Part shown: positions 32,982 to 61,177 of the stretch, piece by piece
Layout: each line of letters starts with the position of its first letter
How positions within the stretch are numbered: position 1 is the first letter of the stretch
From: Candidatus Hydrogenedentota bacterium
Lineage (GTDB): Bacteria; Hydrogenedentota; Hydrogenedentia; Hydrogenedentales; SLHB01
Direction: 5' to 3'
DNA: 64,000 nt
NCBI GenBank assembly: GCA_963668025.2
Contig: CAXXTH010000010.1
Span: forward strand, 736,001 to 800,000
Made by a program: the position numbers and the translations under genes
The notes under the pieces: model-generated
The model's input: only the letters and a program-made list of their open reading frames with translations
Databases searched by the model: none
Told to the model about the DNA's origin: nothing

Positions 32982-33283
32982 TCCGCCGCCAAGTTATCGA
33001 GTGCGGCGCGAAAGCCAAGATCATACCTCGCTTGCTGAAACGCGATTATGTCTTGGCCACGCACACCACATGCGAAGCACTTATATGCACCCGTTTCCAG
33101 ATTCGCGGAAAAACTGGAAACGTGATCTTCGTGGAAGGGGCAAAGCCCCGAAGCGTAACGGCCTCGGGGCTTGTACCTCTGAATGGCGTTTGAATAGAAA
33201 TCGCGTGGATCAATTTGCTTGACACGATCACGGAGAGATGGTATAGTTTTCATACGGAATTTCCTTAATGTTTTTGCGCCCAT
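32966..33283 (-). CDS. CHC2 zinc-finger primase domain protein
   Basis: LCPFHEDHVSSF...YKCFACG. Confidence 0.9.
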   Translation of the reverse strand: MGAKTLRKFRMKTIPSLRDRVKQIDPRDFYSNAIQRYKPRGRYASGLCPFHEDHVSSFSANLETGAYKCFACGVRGQDIIAFQQARYDLGFRAALDNLAAEWGCA

Positions 33284-33292
33284 AACGCTCGG

Positions 33293-33511
33293 TCAAGCGT
33301 TGTGGGCGTCGCCATTTTCATTGATCCATTGCTGAAACGCACCTTCATGAATAAGCACTCTCTTTCCAATTTTGCGAATAACCTTGTCTCGGAAGCCGTC
33401 GATGTTCCGAAAAATGAGATGCCGTAGACCGCTCTCACTTGGCCAAGGATTATTCCGCGCCCATTCGCGCACCGTAAACAGCCGATTGCTTTGTAAACCT
33501 GTGTATTCCAT
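33293..33511 (-). CDS. AlpA/excisionase-like DNA-binding protein
   Basis: LFTVREWA...SGLRHLIF...RKIGKRVLIHEGAFQQWI winged-helix pattern. Confidence 0.75.
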   Translation of the reverse strand: MEYTGLQSNRLFTVREWARNNPWPSESGLRHLIFRNIDGFRDKVIRKIGKRVLIHEGAFQQWINENGDAHNA

Positions 33512-33580
33512 GTCACCATCCTTCACTAGTGGGGATTAATCCCCGTTCCAAAAAAATGGGCACAATGCCCAATCACACAC

Positions 33581-33609
33581 AGCTTAAACTATTCTATTAC
33601 TATTGTCAA
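33581..33609 (-). promoter_or_regulatory. Sigma70-like promoter of the replication operon
   Basis: TTGACA-17 bp-TAAGCT on the minus strand. Confidence 0.6.
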
Positions 33610-33636
33610 GTCCTGCTAAACAGGATAACGCTAGAC

Positions 33637-33891
33637 CTATTTGAACATCGCCTCGATCTGCCGCTGGGTCGCTTTTTCGCGCCGAAGCCGTAAAAGTTGC
33701 TCGTGCTGCTGTTCATCCCACGTGGGGGGAGCATCCTGATATTCGGCAAATCGCTCCTGGAGCCGGTCAATCGCATCGAGCATGGCCTTTAGGTGTCCCA
33801 AGCGTTTGTTCTGGGGAAGTTTTGACATATTCTCGCCGTGCGCAATAACGGCCTCGATTGCCAGCTTTAGATTGTATTTAACCTCGATCAT
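33637..33891 (-). CDS. Small helical hypothetical protein
   Basis: GAGG RBS, 84 aa, last gene of the structural operon. Confidence 0.6.
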   Translation of the reverse strand: MIEVKYNLKLAIEAVIAHGENMSKLPQNKRLGHLKAMLDAIDRLQERFAEYQDAPPTWDEQQHEQLLRLRREKATQRQIEAMFK

Positions 33892-33898
33892 AGTTACC

Positions 33899-34372
33899 TC
33901 ACTTGTCGGGCCTGCTGCCCGATTTGTCCATCGTTTCTTTGAAAGTCTTGAAGGCAACTTTTGCCAGTATCTCTAAATCGCTATCGCTCGCTTTGAGTGC
34001 TTCTTCCCGCAAATTCGGCATATTTGCTCGTCTGCTTAGATTCCATGCGCGGGGTGAAGGCATGCGCACTTCCAGGCGATTAGGAGATACCTTGATAACA
34101 TACTGGGACATCGTGTTCTCTTTAGATTCACCTGTATATGTAAGCGGATTTGAATGGCCGAACCTGCGGAACTTTCGCGCCTGGTATTTCGCCGTCCGTG
34201 GTTGATATCCATATTCTTGCGCGCCCTGAGTTGTGAAGTGTTTTGGGAATAGCTTTTCACGCCAAAATTCCGCAACGGACAGATTGGCTTTTTGCCGCGC
34301 CTCTTTTGCGGCATTGGCCATGCCCCGGGGCGTTTTACCTGGAAAAATAAGAGTAGGTTTGATTCGGATCAT
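33899..34372 (-). CDS. Phage virion morphogenesis / tail-completion-like protein
   Basis: Basic 157 aa; YQPRTAKYQARKFRRFGHSNPLTYTG resembles the Mu gpG / P2 gpS motif. Confidence 0.55.
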   Translation of the reverse strand: MIRIKPTLIFPGKTPRGMANAAKEARQKANLSVAEFWREKLFPKHFTTQGAQEYGYQPRTAKYQARKFRRFGHSNPLTYTGESKENTMSQYVIKVSPNRLEVRMPSPRAWNLSRRANMPNLREEALKASDSDLEILAKVAFKTFKETMDKSGSRPDK

Positions 34373-35872
34373 TTATTCACCTCCCATGAGCGCTTGGCCA
34401 CGGTCGGGGCGGGTGCTGGGTCGTTGATTCCTAAAAGTTCGCGTTTGCTCTTTGGTGGCTTCGGTCAATTTGTCGAGCCGGTCAGTGATCGCTTTCACAT
34501 CTTGACTATCCAGCTTCGCATTAATTGATTCCTTCACGGCATATTGCGCTAAGCTCGCAGCCGGATGCTTCCATTTTTCTACTTCACCGTAAATACTTCC
34601 AGCCGCCTGTAAGTAATGGCCTTCCTGGAATTGTTCACTTGCACGCGATAATGCACGCATAGATCGGCGCATGCCGTACCAAGGAATTCCTTCATCTGTC
34701 GTCAACCCGCCTAGTCCGGCTTCCTCCATCTGCAAGCCTGCTTGCTGATTTTCTAGCGCCATCTGTTGGCTTTCGTATGCGCGCCGTCCGGTCATGCGCC
34801 GCGCCGCCGCCGCCGCCCGCATTTCGGCTGTTTGCTGCTGCCTCTGTAACTCCGGGAATTGCGCTTGCTTCGATAACATTAGATCCCGGGCGTATCCAGC
34901 GGGCTTTTGCGCCGCCGCTTGTTGGGCGAAGAAATCTGCGTTCTGCTCAAGCCATCCAAGCGCTTGGCCTGTCTCTTTTGCCTCAATTCCGTATCGTTTA
35001 TATTGCGTCCAGTCGGCAGCATCAGCGCCCATTACCTGCTTGATGCCAAGCGCCATTTGCGGTTCTGATACCTCTGCCGCCGAATTTTTCCCATACATTT
35101 TTGCGACTTGCAAAGTGAGTGGGGAGTCTTGCCTTAGTCCTTTTGATATATTACTAACCACGGTAGGTAATTGATCACGCGGGGCCGATCTCGATGCGGC
35201 AGAAGCGGCAGCCAAGCCGATATCCAGGCTCGAAAAACCGCCAGCTTGCGGCATGACTCGGGCGATATCCGAAACTTCAAGATCAGATGCTTGGGCGTGA
35301 AAAGCCGTCAAATCTGTGGTTTGTTGCGGAGTTAGTCCACGCGCCGTTCCGCTCAAAATCGCCGTTTCTGAATCTTCCGTTTTGGCCCCGAACTGATTTA
35401 GAAGCATCATCTGATTGGCCATCACTCGGGCCTTTTGTTCATCGCCCTGCATGCGGGATAGCGCCCTCGCCCATATCTCTGTACTATCAGCGGCAGAGAC
35501 GCCATAACGCGCGCCGTGCATGGTGGACTCTGCCATAATTCTAGGATTGTCAGACACCATCATTAAGCCGGTCGATTTCTCGATCAGGGAATTGACAGCG
35601 GTTCCAGACCGCTGGGCCATTTCCTCAAATGCGCGTAATGCGCCTGTGGCAGCATCAATGCCGGTCTTCACGGAGAGCACGCCCCCGGCCATTTTTATAA
35701 GGTCGGATGTACCCTTGCCTGCGAAATCAAGACCCCTACCGGCGCGCCCTCCACTGCGTTCTACGCCATCCAAGGACTTAACAAGGCCTTCGATTTTTTT
35801 GGTGAATGAGACAACATCTTGCACAGCCTTGGCCGTGTCAGCGTCCATCTTATAGATTAAGTCAGAAGGCAT
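34373..35872 (-). CDS. Short tape-measure-like protein
   Basis: 499 aa, Ala/Gly/Gln-rich helical; TMP-like N-terminus (LIYKMDADTAKA) and C-terminus (RLDKLTEAT). Confidence 0.55.
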   Translation of the reverse strand: MPSDLIYKMDADTAKAVQDVVSFTKKIEGLVKSLDGVERSGGRAGRGLDFAGKGTSDLIKMAGGVLSVKTGIDAATGALRAFEEMAQRSGTAVNSLIEKSTGLMMVSDNPRIMAESTMHGARYGVSAADSTEIWARALSRMQGDEQKARVMANQMMLLNQFGAKTEDSETAILSGTARGLTPQQTTDLTAFHAQASDLEVSDIARVMPQAGGFSSLDIGLAAASAASRSAPRDQLPTVVSNISKGLRQDSPLTLQVAKMYGKNSAAEVSEPQMALGIKQVMGADAADWTQYKRYGIEAKETGQALGWLEQNADFFAQQAAAQKPAGYARDLMLSKQAQFPELQRQQQTAEMRAAAAARRMTGRRAYESQQMALENQQAGLQMEEAGLGGLTTDEGIPWYGMRRSMRALSRASEQFQEGHYLQAAGSIYGEVEKWKHPAASLAQYAVKESINAKLDSQDVKAITDRLDKLTEATKEQTRTFRNQRPSTRPDRGQALMGGE

Positions 35873-35892
35873 ATATTTCTCCGTTGCTTAGT

Positions 35893-35927
35893 TGGGGTGG
35901 CGGCGGAAGTGCACACCGCCACCCCTA
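35893..35927 (-). terminator. Hairpin downstream of the capsid gene
   Basis: GGGGTGGCGG...CCGCCACCCC. Confidence 0.55.
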
Positions 35928-35991
35928 AAATGGCGCTCGCCGCCAAACGAGCGCCGGTTATCCGTGAGGCGAGTCACGGCAAGGAGCCTGG

Positions 35992-37941
35992 TTACGAAGC
36001 GCCGGTGCATTTTCGAGAGCAGCGCCAATCAGTCATACTAAGGCCTACGTCTAAACGCACATCCCAGCCAATGCCCCATTCCCCCCTATCGAGCGAGAAG
36101 GTGCGTAGCGCCGGGATTTCATCACCGCCAGCGAGATGCACAATCTCGATAGACGGGGAGTTTTGTGTGCTAAACAGGTAATACGCGGTGTTGCTACCAG
36201 AATGAGTTACGCCGGTTCGGGGATCAACCACGCCATCAGCGCTCAGGCGCTCTTCGGAAATAATATCCAGTCCCAGCACATTAAGTGGGTTGCCCGCGCC
36301 ATCGCCGCTATCCTCGAAACGTTGCGAACTCGAAACGATTTTCGCGGCCAAGAAATACAGCGCGGAAGGAACCACAAGCGTCTTGGCCCGCAAGCCTAAA
36401 ACCGTTTGGCCTACACGCGTGCTTTGCAGCGCCGCGATCTGTGCTTCAAGAGCCGTTGCAGATAGCGCCGTGCCTGTCGTTCCAAGGTTGTTGTGATCGC
36501 CATGGAAGAAGGCCGTACCGTCCGCCGCGTTTGCGTTTGCTAGTATAGCGGACCACACAAAATCAAGTTTGCTTCGCATGCACGCCGCGCCCATTCGATA
36601 GGGTGCATCCGTGATCGCGCCCATATGATCGGCTGCAAGCGTTTCAATGCCTACCTGAAACATCTGCGCAAACGAGTAAACCCGATACGTCTCGGATTCA
36701 TCTGCAAAGTACGTATGGTGCGCTTGGCCACCCGGCGCAAGCTGATTGGCCGTCAAACTCGGACCGTATTTAACACGTTTTTGTGTTTCAAAATCTGGGG
36801 CAGTGATTCGCGGAAGGAACCGGGTGGTGTCTTCGCTTTCCGCCAAACCTTTCAGTAGGGACATACGAACGGAGCCGCTCAAAATATCGCTAAACGTTAG
36901 CGTGCTTTCCGCGCGTGTCAGCACTTCGCGCACAGCGCGTTCTCTGGAGCCGGGTACGCGCAAGCCCGCCGCCCTTAGAACTTCCTTCGCTATATCGCTG
37001 TAGGTTAAGCCGCGCTGCCCCTGCGTTTTTTCTAGCGCCGCCTTCCACTGCGATTGCTCTTCATACGGAAGCATGGACAACGCCCGCGCGCCGTCAAATG
37101 TCTCGGGGAGCAATTGAGCGGAACGATGAACTGCCGGATTCATCTGGAAGCCGAATTGCAGATCAATACCCGCCGGGCCTTGCGGATACAGCTTGGCGTC
37201 GATTGCATCCAGGATTGCCGCGCGCACCTGGTTTTCATCCATCTCGCCAGACAGCGCCCGCGTGCGTAGCTCCTGGTTCACGCCATCGGGATACTTATCG
37301 AGCACCTTCCGGATCGCCAATTCGACTTTTGGGTCAAGGGTGCGTTCTTCGAGTACAGTAGTCGTTTGTTCTTCAGGCATAGGTTTCAATCCTTCTGCGC
37401 ATGAGCGCGTTTTTGCATTTCGGTCCGCGCCTATCGCGGTACAACTCAATTCCTTCAATTCCCATTTCGTAGACACACGTAATGGCATGTTCTCAGGGGC
37501 AGTATATGAGCGGCCATTGACGATCTCGGTCTCGCCCGCCTTAATGTCTCGCTTGTCCAAAATGCGATAGCCAACAGACACATCACGTGCATGGCCATCG
37601 CGGTATTTTTCGTAGACGGGTTGCGCATCCGCTGCAAAGTAAATCCGACCAACCATGCGGCCACCGTCAATATGGATGTCTTCCACATGGCCTAAAACGT
37701 CATGGATGCTTGAGCGGCTGTGGCTATCGCACACTGGCAAATACTCGGGGAGATCCGCGCCGTGCATATCCAGGACTTCGGTGTAGGGATCCCAGCCGCC
37801 CATTTCTACGGGGGAATCAGTAGCGAGAACGGCCTCCACTGAACGGGTGGCGTCGTCTGCGGTGCTGGGCGTGATGGTGAGAGAGCGGGTTGTTAGATCG
37901 TTACTCATCTCGCTCATGCCCATCCTTCTTACCTCGAACAA
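35992..37941 (-). CDS. Prohead protease / major capsid fusion protein
   Basis: N-terminal protease (DSH, DVSVGY, WELKELSCTAIGAD); C-terminal Mu gpT-like capsid (FFHGDHNNL, TLVVPSAL, VRLDVG...DWR); true start may be a few codons downstream. Confidence 0.88.
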   Translation of the reverse strand: MFEVRRMGMSEMSNDLTTRSLTITPSTADDATRSVEAVLATDSPVEMGGWDPYTEVLDMHGADLPEYLPVCDSHSRSSIHDVLGHVEDIHIDGGRMVGRIYFAADAQPVYEKYRDGHARDVSVGYRILDKRDIKAGETEIVNGRSYTAPENMPLRVSTKWELKELSCTAIGADRNAKTRSCAEGLKPMPEEQTTTVLEERTLDPKVELAIRKVLDKYPDGVNQELRTRALSGEMDENQVRAAILDAIDAKLYPQGPAGIDLQFGFQMNPAVHRSAQLLPETFDGARALSMLPYEEQSQWKAALEKTQGQRGLTYSDIAKEVLRAAGLRVPGSRERAVREVLTRAESTLTFSDILSGSVRMSLLKGLAESEDTTRFLPRITAPDFETQKRVKYGPSLTANQLAPGGQAHHTYFADESETYRVYSFAQMFQVGIETLAADHMGAITDAPYRMGAACMRSKLDFVWSAILANANAADGTAFFHGDHNNLGTTGTALSATALEAQIAALQSTRVGQTVLGLRAKTLVVPSALYFLAAKIVSSSQRFEDSGDGAGNPLNVLGLDIISEERLSADGVVDPRTGVTHSGSNTAYYLFSTQNSPSIEIVHLAGGDEIPALRTFSLDRGEWGIGWDVRLDVGLSMTDWRCSRKCTGAS

Positions 37942-38425
37942 AAGTATGGAGCACTTCTAGAATCGGAGAATCGGGCATGATCGTCAATATGTCCATCATC
38001 CATTCTTCCTCTTTGGTGGTAGCACAGAATTTGTGCCCAAAGCCCAGATGATGCCGAATGAGCGCGCCGCGTACTCGACCATATCCAAACACGCTTATCA
38101 TCGCGGCCAGCGGGGAAAGTCCATCATCCAGGGTCATTGTCAGCGCCTCCCATGGAGCGTTCACCCCAAATGAGGATATCGCCGCATCCGGCATTTCCCA
38201 CTGTTTATCCTTAACGAAGAGCGAACCTGCTACAACGGCTTGGAGTAGATCATTGAGCCGTTCACGTGTTTCTTTGTGGGGGATGGATGCACCACGCTCC
38301 AACGCGCCCCAAGCCACGCGGCTTATCCCCAACAGACCAGCGATCTCTGCCTGGGATAGCCTCAAGGCCTTTCGTGTCTTTTCAAGGTCCATGACAAATT
38401 CCTTAACTTTTTCCAAGCAGCCCAT
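37901..38425 (-). CDS. XRE-family HTH regulator with C-terminal extension
   Basis: RKALRLSQAEIAGLLGISRVAWGALERGASIP. Confidence 0.85.
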   Translation of the reverse strand: MGCLEKVKEFVMDLEKTRKALRLSQAEIAGLLGISRVAWGALERGASIPHKETRERLNDLLQAVVAGSLFVKDKQWEMPDAAISSFGVNAPWEALTMTLDDGLSPLAAMISVFGYGRVRGALIRHHLGFGHKFCATTKEEEWMMDILTIMPDSPILEVLHTFVRGKKDGHERDE

Positions 38426-38441
38426 CTGCTAGTATACTGAA

Positions 38442-38470
38442 ATTATACACGAAAGATAAGTACTTGTCAA
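38442..38470 (-). promoter_or_regulatory. Perfect-consensus sigma70 promoter of the xre-capsid operon
   Basis: TTGACA-17 bp-TATAAT with extended TG. Confidence 0.85.
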
Positions 38471-38700
38471 GTGGTATTCGTCAATCCTAAAATAATGATG
38501 AATTCGGGGTGTAGCACCTTCATTTCCTTCGCCGCCTGCGCCATAGCCTCACCTCGGAAGTCGTTAGGTTCCTCGTCCGAGCGAGGAACCTTTGCGCCTT
38601 TCCCGTAATGTTCGCCGGACTCTTTCTGTCGCTCCTTCGCCGCAGGCTTGTACATCTCGGATAGCTTAGCGGCTGAAAAAGGGGTGTCAGTGTCCACCAA
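38467..38700 (-). pseudogene. Probable fragment of a phage ParB/methylase-associated HTH protein
   Basis: YKPAAKERQKESG...EAMAQAAKEMKV resembles a linker plus the start of a helix-turn-helix, then truncates. Confidence 0.35.
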
Positions 38701-39078
38701 AAATCCCTAGGAGGCCTGAAAACGCTCAAAACCTGTCCTAGGGGGCATGTTTCGGGCTGATTTGCCCTCCTAGAACTTTATGGAATTTCACATTATGAGT
38801 AGGTTAAAATGGGCATGGGTTAATATGATATATGAATAAAAGCCTGTAAAAGCCCTAATTGCAGTAGTTTAGGGGTGTCAATGTGCTATAGGTGGGTCGA
38901 TGCCCGGCCCGCCCTTGTCCTTTGGTGTATCACAGGACCCGTACACTGGTACGGCATTTCGGCCTTCCAGAATGCCCCCAGAGCGACGATCTCCCGCAAG
39001 GCTGTATCATCTATCATGCTATCCCTCGCCCTGTGTCGGCCAGCGTGGTGCGGTGCTGGGTCACTGCCGAATGAGACA

Positions 39079-39312
39079 CTAAACGCCTGCTTCAAGAAGC
39101 GATACCACACCACTTCCATGGACGGAATTGTATAAGGACTCGATATACTCGATGATGGATTCCCTGGAAAGATAGATGCGTCGCCCGCGTTTGTAGCCTT
39201 TGATTTTTCGCAACTCAAATAATTCAACCCAGTGTTTCCATGAGTGCCGGAACTCTGCCACTGCCTCATTAGGTGTAATGTCATGGCGGACGATTTCCTT
39301 ATCCATAATCAT
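39079..39312 (-). CDS. Excisionase-like HTH protein
   Basis: ITPNEAVA...KIKGYKRGRRIYLSRESIIEYI; RBS AGGAG. Confidence 0.75.
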   Translation of the reverse strand: MIMDKEIVRHDITPNEAVAEFRHSWKHWVELFELRKIKGYKRGRRIYLSRESIIEYIESLYNSVHGSGVVSLLEAGV

Positions 39313-39368
39313 CTCTCCTTTTTTTTATGGCGGGCCAGCACACGCCAGCCCGCTGCCACTCATTTCTA

Positions 39369-39659
39369 TTATTCGGCCAGGCTCACCGCCAAATATTGCC
39401 AGTCTTTAGGCTTAAAGCTGTGCGAAAAATCCAATGTGCTAAATTCGAGTTCATCATTGTTCAAATTGGCTTCAATGTGGATCTGATTGTCGACAGTGAC
39501 ATAAATCTCCCCACTCTCAACAGAATCACATGTGAATCGTTCCGGTGCGATTCCAAACCGTATACCGGCCAGATAGCGCGCCTTGGCTCTGAGGAATTCG
39601 ATCATTAGAACGGAAAGGCTTTCGAGAGATTTGGCTTGTTCGATAATTTGCATAGACAT
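39369..39659 (-). CDS. Hypothetical protein
   Basis: 96 aa, co-oriented with the other element genes. Confidence 0.55.
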   Translation of the reverse strand: MSMQIIEQAKSLESLSVLMIEFLRAKARYLAGIRFGIAPERFTCDSVESGEIYVTVDNQIHIEANLNNDELEFSTLDFSHSFKPKDWQYLAVSLAE

Positions 39660-39804
39660 GGTGGGAATTCCTTACGGAGGCGATATAATTCTACGGACGG
39701 CGGAGCCTTCGTATCCGCTGCTCGCATCGGCCTTCAGGTGTTCGAGCACCTGGGGGCCTTTTTATGCTCACCGGCCACAATGCCGTATGATGCCTCAAAA
39801 AACT

Positions 39805-40033
39805 TTAGCAGCTTTAGCAAACGTTAGCAAATCGCAAAAAGTCATAAGCCTTTCAGTGACATATACTTACAACAAATTTTAGCAAATTAGAAACTTTAGC
39901 AGGGTCCGTTTTTTCGCCCCTCCGTCGCAACGCTGTCGCAACCGTCGCAACCACGTCGCAAATTTACTATCTATGTAAACCTAATGACACCAATTACTTA
40001 TCATCTTCTGTCGCAGTGTCGCAACTGTCGCAA
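39805..40033 (+). repeat. Second repeat array (TTAGCA x5; TCGCAA x7)
   Basis: Short repeats at roughly 9-11 bp spacing, downstream of and overlapping the integrase 3' end. Confidence 0.7.
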
Positions 40034-40386
40034 GGGTTTGTATTTCCAGGTAACGAAATACTCATTTTTAGCATTGCTTGCTTAATATCATTCTGGAATA
40101 AATGGGAATACCGCATGGTCATGGCCAGGGATGTATGGCCAAGCACCGCGCCGATCTGTTGGAGGGTCATTCCCGAACTTGCCATCAGACTTGCAGCGGT
40201 ATGCCTAAGATCGTGAATTCTACAATCTTGAATATTCGCCCGCCTTATCGCCCACAACCATGCATGGCGGTATGTTTGATATGATCCCGGAAAGATTTTG
40301 CCCTCTTGTCCATCTTGGGCACGCTTACTCAATACTTCCATAGCGAGATCTATAAGTGGAACATCACGCCCACGATTAGATTTTTC

Positions 40387-41914
40387 GTAACACTTTAGCC
40401 GACTGAAGTGTTTTCCGGTGGCAGGGGAGGCAATTGGCCGGTGTTGAGGTAGTGGACCAGGGCGTTGCAGACGGTGCAGACGGGGTTTTGCCCGCGTTTT
40501 TTCAAAGTAAAGAAGACGCTCATGAGCACCGCTTGTATGGCGGCTCCTTGGTCGCTGCGGTTGCAGTAACTGTTTTTGCGCAGGATAACGGCAGGACGGA
40601 TGGAGCGTTCCGCCAAGTTGTTGTCGAAGGGAACATCTGATTGGCCGAGAAAAGTGAAGAGTTCATCCTGGTGTCGGCGCAGCCTTTTTATGAGGCGCTT
40701 GGCGTTGGCGTCCTCCCAGGGCGTATCGCACAAGTCCCGCAAGCGCCGGGCGAAGCGCGCGCGGCGCGAGTCGTACGCCTCCGGTTCGAGCTCGCCGCGC
40801 CGCCGCCACAGCCGGATGGCGTCGGCAATCAGGCGGCGCAGCTTTTTGGCGAAGGCGGGCCAGGCCGGGCTGGGCGATTTGTATTTCTCCACGTGCTCGA
40901 GTTCGCGCAACAAATGCACGAGGCACTTCTGCCGGGCGGCGCACGCCACGGCGTTGTACGCGGCCCAGAAGTCGGCCACCAGCGTTCCGGCGAATTCCCG
41001 CGTGAAGAACTGCTGGAGCGCCGGACTCCCCCGCGAATGGTCGATCAGGAAAAAGCTCAGCCCTTTGGTGGCGAAACACCACAGCCATCGGGTCTTGCCA
41101 TTCACGCGCCAGCCGGTCTCGTCGGCGTTGAGCACCGCCGAGTCCAGCGCTTCCTGGTGAATGGCCTCGTACCAAGGCAGGAGAATCTCCGCCAGCCTGC
41201 GCCACATGTGCAGCAGCCCGCCCGGCGTGACCTGGAAAAGCAGGTGGAAATCGAAGACCTCCACGATTTGCGAAAGCGTGTTGCCCAACACATAGTGCAG
41301 CCACGCGCTGAGGACCAGCACCCGGTTGCCCAGGGTCGCGCCCGGCAAGGCCGCCGCCACAACCGGCTCGACTTTCTTCTTGCATCGCGGACACCAGTCG
41401 CGGTGAATGGTATGCTCGGTGATTTCCGGACGGATGCCTTCGGGTATGTCTTCGGTGTAGCGCGTGCGGGTCTCCGCGCGGCGGTCCAGCGGCCCGCCGC
41501 AGTCGGGACACACCTTGGTGCGGTGTGTTTCACGCCGGTCGATACGTTCGGGCGGCACGCGCCGGCTGCCGGGGTGGCCCATCTTGCGTCCCGGCTTTTT
41601 CTTGCCGCGCACAGGCGTCTGGGGTTTCCCGTAAACTGGCTGCATGCCCGAAGGGGTGGAGGGCGTTTGGTGGGAAGTGAACGCCGCCTCGGCCTGCTGC
41701 TCCGACAGCAGCTTGGATTGCGCCAACAGGGCAAACACCACGGCATCTTCGCCCAATGCGTAGATCGCTCGGGCTTGCTCCTCCGAGAGCAGCGGTCCCA
41801 ATGGAATGCCACTTATTGCCGTCGCCATGGCGTCTTGGCCCAAAACCACAACATCTTGTAACTATATTATACCGAAACGCTACTTATAGTTGCGCCAGAC
41901 GGCTAAAGTGTTAC
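40387..41914 (-). mobile_element. Single-ORF IS66 family element (ISBst12-like)
   Basis: IR GTAACACTTTAGCCG / CGGCTAAAGTGTTAC; 8-bp target duplication GATTTTTC. Confidence 0.95.
40395..41849 (-). CDS. IS66 transposase
   Basis: CPDCG zinc finger, ADETGW, QKCLVHLLR, DNNLAERSIRP. Confidence 0.95.
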   Translation of the reverse strand: MVLGQDAMATAISGIPLGPLLSEEQARAIYALGEDAVVFALLAQSKLLSEQQAEAAFTSHQTPSTPSGMQPVYGKPQTPVRGKKKPGRKMGHPGSRRVPPERIDRRETHRTKVCPDCGGPLDRRAETRTRYTEDIPEGIRPEITEHTIHRDWCPRCKKKVEPVVAAALPGATLGNRVLVLSAWLHYVLGNTLSQIVEVFDFHLLFQVTPGGLLHMWRRLAEILLPWYEAIHQEALDSAVLNADETGWRVNGKTRWLWCFATKGLSFFLIDHSRGSPALQQFFTREFAGTLVADFWAAYNAVACAARQKCLVHLLRELEHVEKYKSPSPAWPAFAKKLRRLIADAIRLWRRRGELEPEAYDSRRARFARRLRDLCDTPWEDANAKRLIKRLRRHQDELFTFLGQSDVPFDNNLAERSIRPAVILRKNSYCNRSDQGAAIQAVLMSVFFTLKKRGQNPVCTVCNALVHYLNTGQLPPLPPENTSVG

Positions 41915-42731
41915 GATTTTTCCAATTCCGGGGGAATGGTTAGTATCCTCTGTTCTAAATTAATACGTTCCCATGTAAGTGTTATCAATTCCCCAAAACG
42001 GCAACCCGTAGAGACCGCCATGAGAATGAGATCCTCTAGGTTTTTGTTTTGCGATTCATGGCAAGCAACCCGTAAACGCTCCAGTTCATCTTGACTGAGA
42101 TATCTCCGCCGTCCTGGGTTCGGGCTTGGCTTTGAGACGTTATGCATGGGATTTGATTCTATGAGACCCCATTCCTTTGATGCCGTGGTAAAAACATGGG
42201 ATAGGGTTTGCAGGTATTGTCTTATCGTGGTGGGGGAGAAATCGCGGCCTTGCCTGTTCGTACCGTTTTGCAATTCTGTTCTGCAAGCAACAATATCAGA
42301 TGGACGCACAGAGCTGATTGTCATATGCCCTATTCGGGCTTGCCACCACCTAAGGTGCAGTTCTTGGGTCAATAGGACCGAAGGGCGTTTCATGTTTAAA
42401 ACTTCACGAATATACCGCTCAATGGCTTCAGACATTGTTGAAGCATGCACTTCAGCGCGGACTTCTCCGCTTATAATTTCTTGCTCTTTGGCGCGTGCCC
42501 AGTCTTTTGCATCCGTTAAGCGTCGAAATTGTTTGGAGCAACTGTGCCCATGCATGCGCACCCTAGCAAGGAAGCGTTTCTGCCCCTTTTTGGTTACGCG
42601 CTCTTCAAAATTGGCCATAAAAATAAACCCCGCTTTTTGTTAGTGTCACTTGCGTGCCACTTGGCTTATTGAAGCCCAAAAAGCGGGATTTGTCAAGACC
42701 ATGTAAGTCATTGACTTACAAGTATTTAAAT

Positions 42732-42807
42732 TGGTGAACGGGATGGGATTCGAACCCATGACCACCGGATTAAAAGTCCGATGCTCTACCAACTGAGCTA
42801 CCCGTCC
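42732..42807 (-). tRNA. trnK: tRNA-Lys (anticodon UUU)
   Basis: GGACGGGTAGCTCAGTTGGTAGAGCATCGGACTTTTAATCCGGTGGTCATGGGTTCGAATCCCATCCCGTTCACCA, 76 nt cloverleaf. Confidence 0.97.
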
Positions 42808-49355: not shown

Positions 49356-50020
49356 TGCGACCTAGAAACCCACGTCCTTTGGACGTGGTCATAGGGCCTT
49401 TGGCTCAGCCTGTTTGAGCCCATCGGCATCCCCTACACTCGTGTTGTTCCGCAACACCGAGGAAGGAGATGCCAATGAGTCGTTTCCGCAAATTATCACA
49501 TGCGATATGGTATTGCCAATATCACATGGTATGGGTGCCCAAATACCGCTACCGGGTTTTGACGGGACCGGTGGGCAAGGAGGTCTACACCTGTATCCAA
49601 ATGTTCTGTGGGCAGCAAGGATGCGAGGTGCTCGAATTGAATGTACAGCCCGAGCACGTGCATTTGCTTGTGATGGTTCCGCCAAAGGTGTCGATATCGG
49701 ATCTGGCGGGCATTTTGAAGGGGCGTACGGCGATCCGGATATTCAAGCAGTTTCCGCATTTGAAAAAGAAGCCCTATTGGGGCAATCATTTCTGGGCACC
49801 TGGATATTGCGTGGATACCGTGGGGCTTAACGAAGAAATGATCCGCAAGTACGTGAAGTTCCAGGAAGAAGCGGAACGTCACGATGAACAGCTAAAATTG
49901 AAGTACTGAACCAAGCGGTGTTGCGGAACACAACCCACGCTTGCATCCTTTGGGTGCAAGCACTCAGCCACTCTCTGAGTGGCCAAAGCAAAGCCACGTC
50001 CTCTGGGCGTGGTTTTTTAC
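49356..50020 (+). mobile_element. IS200-like element, tnpA only, 665 bp
   Basis: Subterminal hairpins at both ends, no target duplication, inserted 3' of TTTAG (1-bp boundary ambiguity). Confidence 0.95.
49469..49909 (+). CDS. tnpA: IS200/IS605 Y1 HUH transposase
   Basis: YHMVWVPKYR, EHVHLL, FWAPGY, IRKYVKFQ. Confidence 0.96.
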   Translation: MPMSRFRKLSHAIWYCQYHMVWVPKYRYRVLTGPVGKEVYTCIQMFCGQQGCEVLELNVQPEHVHLLVMVPPKVSISDLAGILKGRTAIRIFKQFPHLKKKPYWGNHFWAPGYCVDTVGLNEEMIRKYVKFQEEAERHDEQLKLKY

Positions 50021-50448: not shown

Positions 50449-50477
50449 TTGACGCCGGGAATTTTAGGTGCTAGATT
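50449..50477 (+). promoter_or_regulatory. Sigma70-like promoter of TM1266-hydG
   Basis: TTGACG-17 bp-TAGATT with extended TG. Confidence 0.65.
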
Positions 50478-50632
50478 GAATGTATAGATAAACGAAGTGG
50501 TGTGTATCGCAATGTGTCTGCTCGCGTTCATTTTCGCCTGCGGATACAGGGCGCGTAACATTCACCCGACCGCAAGGTGATTCCGAGCGGAAAGGCATGC
50601 ATGCGGCATGAATAAATCATGAATGCTGTTTT

Positions 50633-50672
50633 GCTCCCTTTTCGCGCGGAAGCGCGGAAAGGGGGCTTTTTT
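50633..50672 (+). terminator. Intrinsic terminator inside the 5' leader (attenuator)
   Basis: GCTCCCTTTTCGCGC-GGAA-GCGCGGAAAGGGGGC-TTTTTT, ending 18 nt before the ATG. Confidence 0.8.
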
Positions 50673-50690
50673 ATTTGGAGCGTATGCCGT

Positions 50691-50963
50691 ATGGATAAGA
50701 GGATTGGAATTGTAGGCGTTGTGATTGAAGATATCGCGTGCGCTGAACAGGTCAACGCCGTTCTACATGAATACGGACGGCTCATTATCGGCAGGATGGG
50801 GATTCCATACCGGGAGCGCGGCGTATCGGTCATATCGCTGATAGTGGATGGCAGCAATGATGATATCAGCGCTTTGACCGGCAAGCTGGGCAGGATATCC
50901 GGCGCCTCGGTGAAATCCATGATCACCAAACAAGCGTCCTCATATTCCCGGCAGCCATTGTAA
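50691..50963 (+). CDS. TM1266-family iron-only hydrogenase system regulator (ACT-like)
   Basis: VNAVLHEY...IIGRMGIPY...ISALTGKLG. Confidence 0.9.
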   Translation: MDKRIGIVGVVIEDIACAEQVNAVLHEYGRLIIGRMGIPYRERGVSVISLIVDGSNDDISALTGKLGRISGASVKSMITKQASSYSRQPL

Positions 50964-51037: not shown

Positions 51038-52465
51038 ATGTACAACGTAAAATCCATGGACGCGAACGAATTTATTGAAGATGGAGAGATCCTGGCGTCT
51101 ATTCAGGAAGCAAAACAACTGGCTCAAAATAGCGCGGAAATCGACCGGATTCTGGCGAAAGCCCAGACCTATCAAGGCATCTCCCATCGAGAGGCGGCGG
51201 TCTTGCTCGAAATCGATGACGAAGCGGCGCTCGAGAAAATGTATGCCATCGCTCGGGAGATTAAGGAGACGATCTACGGCAAGCGAATCGTGCTGTTCGC
51301 GCCCTTGTATCTATCCAGCTATTGCGTGAATAACTGCGCCTATTGCGGCTACCGGTGCGCCAATACAATCGGACGGCACCAGCTCACGCAGGAAGAACTG
51401 CGCGAGGAAATCCGGGCATTGCAAGCCATGGGCCACAAGCGCCTGCTGCTGGAAGCAGGCGAAGATGATGAACGATGCCCTATCGAGTACATCCTCGAGT
51501 GCATCAAAACCATCTACAATGAGAAATTCGAAAACGGCGCGATTCGCCGGGTGAATGTGGATATTGCCGCCACCACGGCGGAGAACTACCGGAAACTCAA
51601 GGATGCGGGCATCGGCACGTATATTCTTTTCCAGGAAACCTACCACAAGCCGACCTATCTGGCCTTGCACAGCGGCCCGAAGTGTAACTATGAGTGGCAT
51701 ACGGAAGCCATGGACAGGGCCATGCGGGGCGGGGGCATTGATGATGTGGGCATCGGCCCGCTATATGGGCTATATGACTACCACTACGAAACCGTGGCGC
51801 TGCTGATGCATGCGGAACACCTGGAGGCCGTCAACGGAGTAGGCCCGCACACCATCTCGTTTCCAAGGCTTCTACCGGCGGAAGGCGTCCATTTCGACGA
51901 TTTCCCCTATATCGTCAAAGACCGGGATTTTAAGAAAGTCGTAGCAGTCATACGTATGTCGGTTCCCTATACCGGGATGATCCTCTCCACGCGGGAGAGC
52001 GTCGAATTCCGCAAAGAGCTGTTGGAGATCGGCATCTCTCAGATGAGCGCCGGGTCATGCGTGGGCGTCGGAGGATATGCCCAACGGACAACGGTCGATG
52101 AAAGCGGGCTTGAGGAAAAGCCGCAATTCAATCTTGCAGATCATCGAAAACCCATTGATGTGATTAAAAGCCTAGTGAAAGACGGCTATGTCCCCAGTTA
52201 TTGCACCGCCTGTTACCGGGAAGGCCGGACCGGCGACCGTTTCATGCCGCTGGCGAAATCGGGCCAGATCGGGAATTTCTGTTTGCCTAATGCCCTGCTC
52301 ACCTTTGAAGAATATTTGAAAGATTATGGCGACACCGAATTGCAGGAGATAGGGCAGCAGATGATCGATCGTGAGATTTTGAATGTTCCTAATGAAAAAC
52401 AACGTGAGAGGGCGGTCGATTTTCTCGGCCGCATCCGAAAGGGAGAGCGCGATCTGCGATTTTAA
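51038..52465 (+). CDS. hydG: [FeFe]-hydrogenase maturase HydG
   Basis: CVNNCAYC, LFQETYH, GPHTISFPRL, C-terminal YCTACYR...C auxiliary cluster motif, GERDLRF. Confidence 0.95.
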   Translation: MYNVKSMDANEFIEDGEILASIQEAKQLAQNSAEIDRILAKAQTYQGISHREAAVLLEIDDEAALEKMYAIAREIKETIYGKRIVLFAPLYLSSYCVNNCAYCGYRCANTIGRHQLTQEELREEIRALQAMGHKRLLLEAGEDDERCPIEYILECIKTIYNEKFENGAIRRVNVDIAATTAENYRKLKDAGIGTYILFQETYHKPTYLALHSGPKCNYEWHTEAMDRAMRGGGIDDVGIGPLYGLYDYHYETVALLMHAEHLEAVNGVGPHTISFPRLLPAEGVHFDDFPYIVKDRDFKKVVAVIRMSVPYTGMILSTRESVEFRKELLEIGISQMSAGSCVGVGGYAQRTTVDESGLEEKPQFNLADHRKPIDVIKSLVKDGYVPSYCTACYREGRTGDRFMPLAKSGQIGNFCLPNALLTFEEYLKDYGDTELQEIGQQMIDREILNVPNEKQRERAVDFLGRIRKGERDLRF

Positions 52466-53073
52466 GGCTTGGTGAAGTTGAGTCATTTTCAACGCAGAGG
52501 CCCGGAGAACGCAAAGTATCGCAAAGCATCCACTCTTCTCTATTCTCGAATGTGCGAATAAACGGTTCGAGAGCGGTTTTTTCGTAATGCTTTAGCGGAC
52601 TGAAGCAAGAGCTGTTTTTAGATATAATTTACAAGATTGAACATGATCGCCAAGATTATTCACATATTTGAACCTTAATCTATGAATTGTCCGGGCGTAC
52701 TTTTTTTGTGTAGCAAAATTGCCATTAAAAAAATTGTGTTTCATCTTGTTTAAAAAAATCCCCCATCAATGGAGGTTTGTTATGTATTCGCGGTTCAAAA
52801 AACGGCCCGACGCTTTCATTTCAGATGGCTAAAGTGTTACATTTTTCCTACTTTGCGAATCTATGTGTTCTCCACGCCTTGCGTTGGAAATGATCGTCCA
52901 TATCGAGTTGTAGGAATATCAAGTATAATAGGACAATTTTATCCGGCGATTTTCGGATTTGACACTATTTGATACCGTGAGGCACCATACTTAATCACTT
53001 CGACTTGCATGGCGTCTGGCATGGTGCGGCGGGCCTATAGTAGCCGCGGGGATTCCCACAAAGGCTTGAATTC

Positions 53074-56016
53074 ATGGATGGCGACGCATTTACCATACTT
53101 GCCGCTGAAAGCAATCACGCCGTGTTCCTTATCCGGGGTGGGCATATCGTTTTTGCGAATACCGCTGCGGAATTGCTGCTTGGATACAGCTATGGCGAGA
53201 TGGCGGAGCACACCAATTTTTGGAGCCTTTTTGAGCCAGATGTGCGGTTAAGCATTCTATCGAATGCGCCAGGCCAAAAAGGGCAGCCTGCGGCCAAGCA
53301 TATTGAAACGCGCTTGCGAAGCCTGTCTAATGTGTATCTGCCCGTGAAGCTTTCCGTAATCCCCGCCGAAGAAGGGCAGCTTTGCGTTATTGTACGGAAG
53401 CTTGCGATAGGCAGTGGCTGGGAGGAAACCGCCGCACTGCATATGAGATATGCCGATGCGCTGGCCACGTGCGCCCATGTGCTTTTGGCGACGACCGAAG
53501 TGGAAGCGGCGCTGCCCGCCGCCGCACGGGCGTTGTGTGAAGCGGCATGCGCATGCATGGTGTGCTTCTTCGAGAATGTGCGGGATAATGGCGGCAGCCG
53601 GGGGATGCGGCTGTTGTACGAGGAAGACGCCCAAGGCGGCATGTCCTTGTTTGAAGGGCCGGATGGCCGCCAGATGGCAAGCCAGCCAGATTTTCTGAGG
53701 TGGATATCATTGCTGGCCAGCGAGCAGGCCATGCATGGGCCTATCAGCCAATTGCCTAAAGAGGAGCGTGATTTATTCGCCCAGCATGGGATTGGTTCGG
53801 TTTTGATCTTGCCGGTATGGTCGGAGGGCGTATGGTCCGGCATTGTCCTATTCGGTGCATCAGATAAAAGCCGTTCCTGGCCCGCGCATGAACGCCGCAG
53901 CTTGCAGCTCGCGGCGCAGATTATCGGAGCCTACTTAGCGCGCGGGAGGGCGGAGGAGCTTACAAAGCGCCATCGGGATGAGTTGATGGCGGTGAATCAA
54001 CAGCTCGAGGACGCCATTTCCCGGGCCAATCGCATGGCGCTCGATGCGGAGATGGCCAGCATCGCGAAGAGCGAATTCCTTGCCAATATGAGCCATGAGA
54101 TCCGTACGCCCCTCAATGGAGTCATTGCCACCTCCGGATTATTGGCCGATACGCCGCTCACGCCCGAGCAGCGTGAATATGCGGAGATTATCCGCGTGTC
54201 GGGCGAGACCTTGCTGTCTTTGGTGAATGACATACTCGATTTCTCTAAAGTGGAAGCGGGCAGGCTCGAGCTGGAGAGCATTGATTTTAATCTTCGCGCG
54301 TGTATCGAAGAGACAGGCGATTTGCTCGCGGCGCGCGCGCATGAACAGGGCCTGGAGATGCCTATCCTTATGGAGCGCGGCGCACCGGAATGGGTGGGCG
54401 GCGATCCTTCCCGGTTCCGGCAAGTGCTCCTCAATCTGGCGGGCAATGCAGTTAAATTCACCCAAGCGGGCGAAGTGTGTATACGCGTGGAGGTGGTGGA
54501 GGAATCCGCGGAATCCGTGACGGTTCGAACCAGCGTATCGGATACTGGCATTGGCATCCCACCGGACCGCATTGCATCGTTGTTTAGCCCATTCACCCAG
54601 CTCGATGCATCCACCACGCGGCGCTACGGAGGCACCGGCCTGGGCCTGGCTATTTCCAAGCGGCTTGTTAATGCCATGAACGGAGAGATAGGGGTCGAGA
54701 GCGTGGAGGGAAAGGGCTCGACCTTCTTCTTTACGATACCGTTCCGCAGGCCGTCTGCAAGCCGCGCCATGCCTGCTGGCCATGCAATGCTCCGTGGTGT
54801 GCGCGTCCTGGTGGCCGACAACAACGCGAAAAACCGCCAGGCTTGCATGGAATGCTTGGCTGCTTGGGGATGCGAGGCTTTCGAGTCAGAGTTTGAGAAG
54901 AATGTGTTGTCCTTATTGCGCGGCGCTGCTGGCGCGCCGCCATTCCGCGCCGCGTTGCTCGGAATGAATTCAAGCGATGTTTTAGCGCAAGAGCTGGCCG
55001 CCGCTATTTCCCAGGATGCATCGCTCGCCGGTGTGCGCTTGATCTGGATGGCGCTGGCCACCCAGCGCGCGGAAGGCCAGAAGCTAGCTGCCGCATGCAG
55101 CGGCGCTTATATCGTCAAACCGGTGAAGCAACATGCGCTTTATAATGCACTGGCCGAAGTGATCGGATTTGCGTCCCATGAAGCGGGGGGCGGTTCCACC
55201 GAACGCGCTAATGACGCCGCCCCCGATGAAGCGCAGCGGAAGCAATTCCGAATCTTGCTCGCCGAGGACAATCGGGTGAATCAAAAGGTGGCGGAACGTA
55301 TGCTGGCGCGCCTTGGTTATGGGTGCGATATCGCCGATAATGGCTTGGCCGCCTTGGATGCAGTGTCCCACCGGGTATATGACCTCATCTTGATGGATTG
55401 TCAAATGCCTGAGATGGATGGATACCAAGCGACACAGGCCATCCGGCGGTGGGAGCTGGGCCAGCAGCGGCGCGTCGCCATTGTGGCCATGACCGCCGCA
55501 GCCATGAAGAGCGACCGGGAGCAATGTATCGAATCTGGCATGGATGATTATATTACCAAGCCGGTGGACATTCATGCGCTGGATGCCGTGCTTAGGCGGT
55601 TTCTCGACGCCAAATTGGAATCGCCGCCAGCGGATGAAGCAAAAGACTCAGAAGCCGACATTAACGCGCAAGGCCCCCCGCCGGTGGATTTCACTCGGCT
55701 TGAATCCATTCTGGAAGGCGACCATGTGCTGTTTCAAGAAATCATGAGCATGTTTTTATCCGACACAACCAGCCGCTTGGAATGTTTGCGCAAAGCGGTA
55801 TCAGCAGAAGATATGGCTGAGATCATGCGTCTTGCCCATTCGCTTCGAGGCGCCAGCAGCAATATAGGCGCCATGGGATTGGCGTCCGCCGCGGAAGCAC
55901 TGGAGAAAAGCGCCAAGGCCGGCGATCTGGAAGAATCTGAAGTTGTGCATTCGCGTGTCGAGTCTGAATTTAAGCGAGTACGGCGCGCGCTCGAAGAACG
56001 AATTGGCAGGCAATAG
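53074..56016 (+). CDS. Hybrid sensor kinase PAS-GAF-HisKA-HATPase-REC-REC-Hpt
   Basis: [49 protein letters not shown]. Confidence 0.95.
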
Positions 56017-59142: not shown

Positions 59143-61177
59143 ATGGCTTCAAACGTTCACCCTAGACGGCATCTTGAAGTATTGTCTCTTTCTATTTTGG
59201 CTTGCCTGGCTTTTTCGGTTCTGGAACTGATTAAGTTCCAACGCATATATGGATGGTGCGGCGGCGATTTTCAAGGCTGGGCTGGCGTTCTGCTTGGATT
59301 CGGCATTTACCTGGCGCTGGTCTGGGGAGTAGCGGAGCTGGCGCTGGCTGTTGTCCGTATGGCAAGCCGCCAACGGGATTGGATGCCCGTAGTTGCGGTC
59401 TGGTTCTCCTCCTCGCTGGTGTGGTCCGCCGTATGCGCTGGCGGGGGAAATGTCCGCCTGGCCACCATCGTGTGCATGCCGGTGCTTTTGTGTGTTTGCT
59501 TTGTGGGCGCAGGATGGCGGAGAGGTGCGCGCCTGAACCGTTATATCGCGCTGGCCTTGTGTTTCCTAGCTTGCGGCGCGGCGCAAACCGCCTTGGGCGA
59601 ACTACTTTTTTTGTCTCCCCACCGCCTCCTATACGCCACGCCCGCCGCATTGGCGTATGGCTTGCTCTCGGGTTTGTTGCTGCTTTGGATGCGAAGCCGC
59701 TCCTGGCGGGTCCGGTTCGTATGTGCCGTGCTGATGCTTGGCTTGCCGTTTTCGGTTTTTGCCTTGCGCTTCGCGCCAGCACGCGCCCATAACGGCGCTC
59801 CGCCGAATCTAGTCTTGATCACCTGCGATGCGTTGCGAGCAGATTTTTGTTCCGTATATGGCGGGACAACGCCGACGCCCGCCCTCGAATCGCTTGCCCA
59901 AACCGGACGATTGTATGCATCGAGTTATTCGCTTGCCCCATGGACCCTTCCTTCCATGGTGGGCCTGTTTTCCTCATCATATCCGCCAGGCGTAGCGCCT
60001 CATTCCGAGCCTGCGCAGGCTATTCGCGCGCTCACCCGAAACCGCATCCCGGATGAAACGCCCACGCTCGCAGAATTGCTGGCGGCTCGAGGTTATAGGA
60101 CAGGAGGATTCAGCGGCAATCCCTTGTTGCAGGGACCAAACGGCGTATTTCGAGGTTTTCAGGCATCCGCCGCATTCTATAACCGTGCAACCGCTAAAAA
60201 CGGGCCTGTTGCGCCAAGTCCCCATATTGCAGGGAGCGGCGGCCCGCTTTTGGCCGGAGATCGCCCCCGAGCGTCCATTAGACACTACGCGCATCCTCAC
60301 CCGGTACGCCCAGCATTTCATCCGGCGCAACGCCCGCCAGCCGTTTTTTCTCTGGGTTCATTACATGGACCCCCACACGCCGTTGGATCCTCCCGAGAGG
60401 TATCGCTCGATGGCGGGGCCTCGGCCGGTGTTTTGCGATGCCGATCCTCGCTGGGGCTGGAATTCTTTTTCCCGTCAGCCGGTATACAATGATTTGGTTC
60501 TGGATGAACCGGATCGCCGTTACATCGAGTCCTTATATCGGGGTGAAGTGCGGTATGTGGATGAAGGCGTTGGGCAGAGCCTAGGTGTGCTGGATGCCTT
60601 GGGGCTTCGAGAGCGCACCGTAGTATGCCTCACGGCGGACCACGGCGAGGCATTCTGGGAGCATGGCCATTTCGGGCATGGCACAGCATTATATGATGAA
60701 CAAGTCCATGTGCCGCTCCTATTTTCGGGGCCAGGCATTGAATCCGGCCAGGAATCCGCGCCCGTCTCCGCCATCGGCGTCATGCCAGCCTTAGCCAGCC
60801 TTCTTGGGATTCCGGCTCCTCCCCAATGGAACGGGCAATCTTTGCTTGAATCGCCAAATCAGCCTTGCTATATACGCGCTAACAATCCACTTATCACCCC
60901 CGAGCCGCTTGAAGCCGTCGTTTCTCCCTCTAGCGGTTTGAAAGGCATTCACGGCCTCGCATCGAATCGGTTCGAGCTGTATAGGCTTGATGAAGATCCT
61001 GCGGAACAACGTGATTGCAGCGCGGGGCAGCCAGCCGATGCGGAGACGTTGCGCGCGGTGTTGGAGAAGTGGAACGCCGCCTATCCGCCGGGTGAGTCTG
61101 CCGCACAACCCGCGAATGCGGAAGAGGAGATGATGGAGCAATTGCGTAATATGGGATATGCAGGACAGAAAAATTAG
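59143..61177 (+). pseudogene. Membrane-anchored sulfatase-family protein with a frameshift near 60195
   Basis: N-half PNLVLITCDALRAD and WTLPS in one frame; C-half HYMDPH, TADHGE, HVPL, QLRNMGY in the +1 frame. Confidence 0.8.

Follow-up and report, generated by a model that had tools for sequence, protein, structure and literature searches.

In the PyrR attenuation of the Bacillus subtilis pyr operon, an anti-antiterminator hairpin competes with an antiterminator, which in turn competes with an intrinsic terminator. TRAP, which acts on the Bacillus trp genes, is an 11-mer beta-wheel reading (G/U)AG triplet repeats. Small terminator-coupled OFF riboswitches are built on an aptamer-like hairpin that lends its 3' strand to the antiterminator, occur on both terminator and Shine-Dalgarno platforms, and control varied genes of a pathway. 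How cells control the [FeFe]-hydrogenase maturases is largely unknown. One of these, HydG, makes the CO and cyanide ligands, so that its uncontrolled activity is plausibly harmful. The TM1266 family, whose gene precedes hydG at the locus described here, has no known target; its structure has been available since 2006 (2NZC), under the label 'putative regulator'.

The window analysed here is a stretch of 64,000 nucleotides from a Candidatus Hydrogenedentota bacterium, and contains a leader RNA in front of TM1266 and hydG. Its leader resembles the pyr system, in that a conserved anti-antiterminator hairpin competes with an antiterminator and the antiterminator with a terminator, and the TM1266 operon likewise starts with the (here putative) regulator gene and can have further sites between later genes (in genome G136, and by coordinates in G128). 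The two differ in that there is no sequence or structure homology between them (the PyrR-site model, RF00515, scores 18.5 bits on the leader, against a gathering threshold of 54), and PyrR has a phosphoribosyltransferase fold, whereas TM1266 is a 90-amino-acid NikR-C/ACT-like domain and a putative RNA binder. As in the TRAP system, a small oligomeric ligand-activated protein would terminate the leader and block ribosome-binding sites elsewhere, and the translational sites of TRAP resemble seven loci in which the tail of the motif is the hydG Shine-Dalgarno sequence. However, the TRAP site consists of triplet repeats, whereas a hairpin with two purine loops is found in the TM1266 leader. The OFF riboswitches share with this leader the aptamer-like hairpin, the strand shared with the antiterminator and the two kinds of platform, but not its strict link to one protein family, and the leader has no match in Rfam 15. 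Finally, NikR possesses the same ferredoxin-like regulatory domain as TM1266 (TM-score ∼0.78), but its ribbon-helix-helix DNA-binding domain is missing from TM1266, as, presumably, is its set of nickel-ligand His and Cys residues.

All features of the locus are on the plus strand. A sigma-70-like promoter spans 50449–50477, with a -35 element TTGACG (50449–50454), a 17-nt spacer and an extended -10 element TG-n-TAGATT (50472–50477). It matches at 9 of 12 positions in a promoter scan, with the upstream TG present; such sites are not rare, as three were found in the region for 2.0 expected. The closest relative, G059, has its promoter at the same place, and in other lineages TTGACA/TATAAT promoters abut the core motif directly. 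Transcription is predicted from the promoter position to start at ∼50484, giving a leader of ∼207 nt (50484–50690). The TM1266-family gene follows (50677–50963 including its Shine-Dalgarno sequence GGAG at 50677–50680, with the ATG at 50691 and the stop codon at 50961–50963), encodes 90 amino acids, and was assigned by TIGR03959 (111.6 bits, cut-off 60.8) and PF21699. An in-frame ATG at 50619, considered as the start of a leader peptide, would add 24 amino acids; it was rejected, and the start taken as 50691, since the family alignment begins at MDKR and GGAG precedes 50691. The second gene of the controlled unit is hydG (51038–52465; TIGR03955, 681 bits, cut-off 312), which encodes the radical-SAM maturase of the [FeFe]-hydrogenase H-cluster. 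On the same strand, a 980-amino-acid hybrid histidine kinase (PAS, HisKA, HATPase, receiver and Hpt domains; 52466–56016) starts ∼600 nt after hydG.

The leader begins with an upstream domain (50513–50552), formed by the helices P1 (50513–50521/50540–50548) and P2 (50524–50526/50535–50537), with conserved internal-loop letters followed by a conserved GGGC. Its topology resembles that of the core, of which it may be a diverged copy, although the loop letters differ; it is present in some lineages only, and missing where the promoter abuts the core. The core motif (50563–50604, 39.2 bits with the model R2 described below) is centred on a hairpin at 50566–50594. A closing pair, C50566/G50594, is followed by an outer loop (CGA 50567–50569 facing AAA 50591–50593), stem A (CCGC 50570–50573/GCGG 50587–50590), an inner loop (AA 50574–50575 facing GA 50585–50586) and stem B (GG 50576–50577/CC 50583–50584), which is capped by the terminal loop UGAUU; the tail of the core is GGC. 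Further downstream is a variable hairpin, CATGA-ATAAA-TCATG (50607–50621), and then an intrinsic terminator (50633–50672) with stem 50633–50647/50652–50666, loop GGAA and U-run 50667–50672. The terminator has 15 pairs, 10 of them G-C, and a hairpin energy of about -28.6 kcal/mol, and is followed by TTTTTTATTT. The sequence GCGGAAAGG occurs twice, at 50587–50595 and in the 3' arm of the terminator at 50654–50662, and an antiterminator helix (50581–50651) can form between UUCCG-A-GCGGAAAGG (50581–50595) and CCUUUUCGC-G-CGGAA (50637–50651), enclosing the variable hairpin. Between the end of the terminator stem (50666) and the ATG there are 24 nt, of which 18 nt follow the T-run at 50667–50672, which is too short for a second promoter to fit between terminator and gene. 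The sequence-only reading from which this work started had proposed a leader of ∼200 nt with a promoter, a strong terminator, the repeat and the CATGA hairpin, all of which lie where it had put them; the separate downstream promoter that it had named as contrary evidence is the one for which there is no room.

The predicted fold of the 207-nt leader has an energy of -86.5 kcal/mol, compared to -67.0 ± 4.3 for 200 shuffled sequences (z = -4.6). For a transcript cut at 50651, the minimum-energy fold is the antiterminator (50581–50595/50637–50651), with core stems A and B destroyed, while for the full-length transcript it is the core together with the terminator. The antiterminator is incompatible with the core because the 3' strands of stems A and B are needed for both. 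Core, antiterminator and terminator thus exclude one another in turn, which would make this an OFF switch, where a stabilised core leads to termination. GCGGAAAGG had been read as a mutually exclusive antiterminator strand, which the fold of the cut transcript bears out; what had been missed is that the same letters supply the 3' strand and the tail of the conserved hairpin 50566–50594. This hairpin is the anti-antiterminator and the real recognition element of the leader.

The same arrangement recurs in other leaders. A convincing terminator begins no more than 80 nt after the core in 57 of the 60 related leaders examined. The terminator arm sequences vary by lineage (GCUCCCUUUC, GCGCCU, CCGCACCU, GCCUUCUUAC and others), each matching the local core tail. 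In these 57 leaders, the duplex between the core tail and the terminator 5' arm has a mean energy of -11.8 kcal/mol, compared to -8.2 for shuffled arms; the pairing reaches an empirical p ≤0.05 in 24 of the 57, and several do not stand out. The leader has the elements of an attenuator, namely a terminator between promoter and start codon and an alternative helix on the 5' arm of that terminator. Taken together, I consider it highly probable that a real, conserved attenuator is present in front of TM1266-hydG.

A scan using one genome per species provided 80 TM1266 loci, mostly from Clostridia. The leader of G059 aligns with that of the window from about 50520 onward, and the nine closest loci have the two-domain leader in common. 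A pattern fixing only the loop letters recovered the smaller core from 23 of the 81 upstream regions, and the stems of these regions proved complementary (CAC/GUG, CCC/GGG, CUUC/GAAG) even though pairing had not been demanded; a stricter scan that did demand pairing located the core in 33 of 81. The consensus is 5'-YC-UGA-stem A (3–4 bp)-(N)RA-stem B (2–4 bp)-loop-B'-GA-A'-RAAGG-YGC, which corresponds to a 43-nt hairpin with two purine-rich internal loops (C-UGA..RA..GA..RAAGG). Positions C4, A7, A14, A40, A41 and G42 are invariant.

Two covariance models were built, R1 (97 positions, 10 sequences) and R2 (43 positions, 29 sequences, with the structure supplied by hand). With default filters and E≤0.05, R2 detects the core ahead of TM1266, on the coding strand, in 40 of 81 sources; no match was obtained with these filters at the other 41 TM1266 loci, nine of which have TM1266 inside an operon. 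In the 21 R1 matches (set A5), 94.5% of cells are paired, compared to 78% in shuffled and 33–49% in slid alignments, with both sides changed at 17 of 20 pairs; for the helix of the upstream domain this is the case for 12 of 12 pairs, with 92% of cells paired. The 73 distinct R2 matches (set A6) have 89.9% of cells paired, compared to 70.5% shuffled and 28–51% slid, with 115 cells changed on both sides versus 38. All these counts lean towards structure, since sets A5 and A6 were fitted to the models and set A4 was picked by the scan demanding pairing, and they include related genomes and sequences, which are not independent. The leader has the conserved, covarying structure expected of an aptamer. 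Conserved structure in homologous leaders had been set out beforehand as one point on which the proposal of an undescribed attenuator or riboswitch could fail, and it is present.

The RNA is apparently uncatalogued. Rfam 15 at the gathering score identifies no family in the leader, which agrees with the lack of T-box, SAM or TPP consensus seen initially, and at E≤10 only four sub-threshold matches fall on it. The best of these are the PyrG leader (27.1 bits, threshold 65) and the PyrR site (scores as above); in both cases it is chiefly the terminator that aligns. Membership of any Rfam family (T-box, SAM, TPP, PyrR site, PyrG leader or others) was rejected, as no score reaches its gathering threshold; the same database yields nothing overlapping the leaders of 20 related loci from other lineages. 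A search of the literature outside subscription journals found, in the text it covered, no publication linking hydG or TM1266 to an RNA element, and the passages seen of PMC2965389 and PMC9481103 hold no description of this RNA. Together with the covarying homologous leaders, the folding competition and the lack of room for a second promoter, these results uphold the original suggestion of an undescribed attenuator or riboswitch.

Two visual resemblances were also rejected. A K-turn is a three-nucleotide bulge followed by tandem G-A/A-G pairs, between a canonical and a non-canonical helix; inspection of the consensus shows 2–3 unpaired nucleotides per strand in both loops, and no 3-nt bulge followed by GA. 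A hammerhead-like reading of CUGA...GAAA does not fit the spacing, again by inspection, and has no Rfam match.

Elsewhere in the window, the matches reaching the Rfam gathering score are limited to a group II intron and a tRNA. The intron (Rfam D1-D4, 28626–28913) is followed by a reverse-transcriptase/maturase ORF (28939–30399). The tRNA gene (42735–42807, minus strand) is adjoined by a mobile-element remnant (30915–42807), including a DUF3987 gene (30915–32978), a phage capsid-like gene (35992–37938), and integrase fragments (39994–40338 and 41911–42615) split by an IS66 transposase (40395–41846). Two overlapping ORFs (59143–60489 and 60053–61174) match different parts of the Sulfatase domain, and may be a frameshifted sulfatase gene. 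The genome of the window also encodes DUF1559 (prepilin-type N-terminal methylation motif), along with sulfatases and a GH123 hydrolase, a gene content suggesting membership of the PVC group.

I propose the following mechanism for the leader. The core hairpin (50566–50594) can fold during transcription; if nothing held it, its 3' half and tail (50581–50595) would pair with 50637–50651, and the resulting antiterminator would block the terminator and allow transcription of TM1266-hydG. If an effector clamped the core, the terminator (50633–50666) and its U-run would form, and transcription would end. The effector would most likely be TM1266 itself, made from the gene directly downstream and possibly loaded with a small ligand, in which case TM1266 and HydG would be under negative feedback similar to that of PyrR or TRAP. 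The covarying structure, the competing helices and the strict linkage to TM1266 are results of the comparisons presented here; regulated termination, OFF as the state with bound core, and RNA binding by TM1266 are inferred.

The distribution of the RNA bears on the identity of the effector. R2 has a single significant match in G000 and in each of four other genomes, and neither a DNA search nor R2 identified a second copy of the leader in the window's own genome. A broader sample comprised 84 genomes from the class of a MAG labelled Gracilibacter, of which 38 have an R2 match at E≤0.05. At the new loci, TM1266 is directly downstream of the RNA in 24 of 29. In a further two (L091 = G131:C204 and L095 = G081:C278), the core and terminator are intact and TM1266 is truncated after ∼20–40 codons; each of these genomes has another TM1266 that is intact and preceded by a leader of its own. 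The remaining three are matches of 25.8–28.2 bits inside long ORFs, without terminator. Three second copies were found, each preceding a second TM1266-hydG pair. Conversely, TM1266 scores over its cut-off in 52 of the 84 genomes, and the RNA adjoins the gene in 48 of these 52 (31 by coordinates, and 17 from an unfiltered search of 20 missed loci, the six weakest being read by eye). The TM1266-bearing genomes with no R2 match are G109, G114, G137 and G139, the last two of which have no HydG; divergent TM1266-like genes in three HydG-less genomes (G137–G139) also have no R2 match. In a phylum-level sample, R2 matches were found in 7 of 151 genomes; the three new matches that have terminators all lie before TM1266, and another, of 25.6 bits, is inside a coding sequence. 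Genome-wide, every R2 match of at least 28.9 bits that was checked, at a fetched locus or by contig coordinates, adjoins a TM1266 gene.

Genomes with hydG only complete this comparison. In 14 genomes with HydG over its cut-off and no TM1266, the core was not found upstream of hydG in an unfiltered search of 1.1–1.2 kb (13 full stretches, the fourteenth being 137 nt long owing to the contig end); the best R2 score, 15.1 bits, is inside the gene. TM1266 paralogues of the CPF_0552 type, at four loci (L141–L144, in G128, G124, G123 and G125), gave no R2 match; these small proteins score ∼32–37 bits to TIGR03959 and have a long AT-rich leader, and their regulation, if any, differs. This co-occurrence of an RNA site with the gene of its putative binding protein appears to be that of a protein-operated autoregulatory leader. 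The pattern typical of riboswitches, which precede varied genes of one pathway independently of any single protein, was not observed.

Additional copies of the core are found within some operons, as expected where a regulon or operon has several operator copies. Genome G136 has a core and terminator before TM1266 and again before hydG; in G128, R2 matches lie on both sides of TM1266 (by coordinates only); and in at least six loci tandem cores occur ∼50 nt apart. In the window there is no second R2 site. In seven loci, an R2 match (14.8–27.3 bits) ends 3–7 nt before the hydG ATG: L073 (2066–2107), L056 and L025 (both 2795–2837), L077 (3810–3852), L049 (3806–3846), and L083 and L040 (both 3787–3830). 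Since the matches end so close to the ATG, the core tail (GAAAGRAGG) is the hydG Shine-Dalgarno sequence in these loci, and for the same reason chance matches in coding sequence ∼1.3 kb after the TM1266 start were rejected as an explanation. These hydG-proximal cores look like a translational version of the switch. In L056, the RNA match is before hydG only and none was found before TM1266, which would therefore not be autoregulated; in L025, TM1266 starts 15 nt after another ORF, so a leader farther upstream is possible. A separate case is L082, where a 22.5-bit R2 match just after TM1266 (2695–2737) precedes a terminator-like hairpin and an ORF other than hydG, a possible further target gene.

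The TM1266 protein of the window matches PDB entry 2NZC, a 'hypothetical protein' with four chains, with E = 4e-15. Its AlphaFold model is a beta-alpha-beta-beta-alpha-beta domain (pLDDT 90), and after 2NZC itself the most similar solved structures are NikR C-terminal domains (TM-score ∼0.78) and ACT domains, neither of which is known to bind RNA. A domain search identified no DNA-binding part, leaving a stand-alone domain of regulatory type. The chains listed in the fold search include a single one taken from a complex with RNA, a ribosome chain ranked 41st. Residues R4, N22, L25, G34, R35, G37, P39, Y40, D57, G64 and G67 are invariant in 30 TM1266 sequences; of the His residues, H26 alone is nearly invariant, and no Cys is conserved. 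Co-variation between protein and RNA, sought by eye between UAA or UGA loops and TM1266 residue 60, was inconsistent and was discarded.

On balance, I lean towards the view that TM1266, through its NikR-C/ACT-like domain, binds the core and represses the operon. Among the effectors suggested at the outset, the genomic distribution leads me to favour RNA binding by TM1266 over tyrosine, cysteine and iron, as a deduction rather than a proof; the co-occurrence of TM1266 with the RNA could also reflect a shared pathway step, with no contact between the two. The broader proposal is made more tentatively, namely that the TM1266 family may be a new family of RNA-binding attenuation proteins, which would sense a metabolite or metal of the H-cluster, clamp the hairpin, terminate their own operon and block hydG translation.

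The strongest competing explanation is a small-molecule or ion riboswitch, in which the core (with the upstream domain in some lineages) would bind a metabolite of H-cluster assembly and cause termination, TM1266 being merely the first regulated gene. Candidate ligands include tyrosine, p-cresol, SAM, 5'-deoxyadenosine, cysteine, Fe2+, cyanide and a HydG product. The invariant internal-loop purines and covarying stems suit an aptamer, as does the use of both terminator and Shine-Dalgarno platforms; the window's lineage has a second conserved domain, giving a 97-position two-domain form that is riboswitch-like in size, and tandem cores are an arrangement known for some riboswitch classes. The TM1266 fold, with its ligand-binding NikR-C and ACT relatives, also gives no hint of RNA binding. 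However, RNA of significant score was never found without an adjoining TM1266 gene, and the core is missing upstream of hydG in the 13 fully read HydG-only genomes. Moreover, the entire sensor in many lineages would be one ∼35-nt hairpin between promoter and terminator, and some lineages do without the upstream domain, which aptamers seldom allow. I therefore regard this explanation as rather unlikely, if the most serious of the alternatives to binding by TM1266.

Another trans-acting factor could recognise the core, such as an RNA-binding protein (for example an L7Ae-type K-turn binder), a small RNA or a tRNA. The two loops could form tandem sheared G-A pairs, a common feature in protein recognition, but their spacing does not fit a K-turn, and there is no match to the T-box or any other Rfam family. 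A host factor would also leave unexplained why the RNA is so strictly co-inherited with TM1266 and why the module was transferred as a whole to another phylum, which makes this improbable. Least probable of all is a conserved stabilising or processing structure with a leaky terminator and no regulated switch. In its favour, the lowest-energy fold overall is the terminator form; against it, every lineage keeps terminator arm and core tail complementary despite differing sequences, the motif recurs fused to the hydG ribosome-binding site, and the unpaired letters are invariant.

TM1266 was found in none of 36 genomes of the window's family and in one of 24 others of the order (G059, with 87% identity), and 22 of the 36 same-family genomes have a HydG only 45–50% identical to that of the window, without TM1266. 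G059 has both HydG types, with the window's type at 84% identity. The closest TM1266 proteins (84–85%) belong to Gracilibacter and other Bacillota MAGs. A hydF-hydE pair and hydrogenase genes are encoded elsewhere in the window's genome, without the RNA. The divergent HydG without TM1266 in these 22 genomes, together with G059 having both types, points to horizontal acquisition of the RNA-TM1266-hydG unit, most likely from Clostridia and beside an IS200 element. Upstream of the module, an IS200/IS605-family TnpA gene (49469–49909) is followed by a terminator-like hairpin (49990–50016). Promoter and leader take up the final ∼240 nt of the non-coding stretch that separates this gene from TM1266; in the ∼430 nt between 50020 and 50448, the sole feature is a 138-amino-acid minus-strand ORF without family match.

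The conserved RNA gives TM1266 a testable target. If TM1266 binds it, the ACT/NikR-C fold would have acquired a new role in RNA binding, and a new family of attenuation proteins would be at hand; if a metabolite binds instead, the leader would be a new riboswitch class reporting on H-cluster assembly. In practice, the motif offers a compact part for building regulation in anaerobes, helps to annotate hyd operons as a marker, and could be proposed as a new Rfam family. Should TM1266 indeed clamp the RNA, [FeFe]-hydrogenase maturation would have its first described control circuit at the RNA level, in the form of an RNA-protein-enzyme cassette that is portable between phyla.
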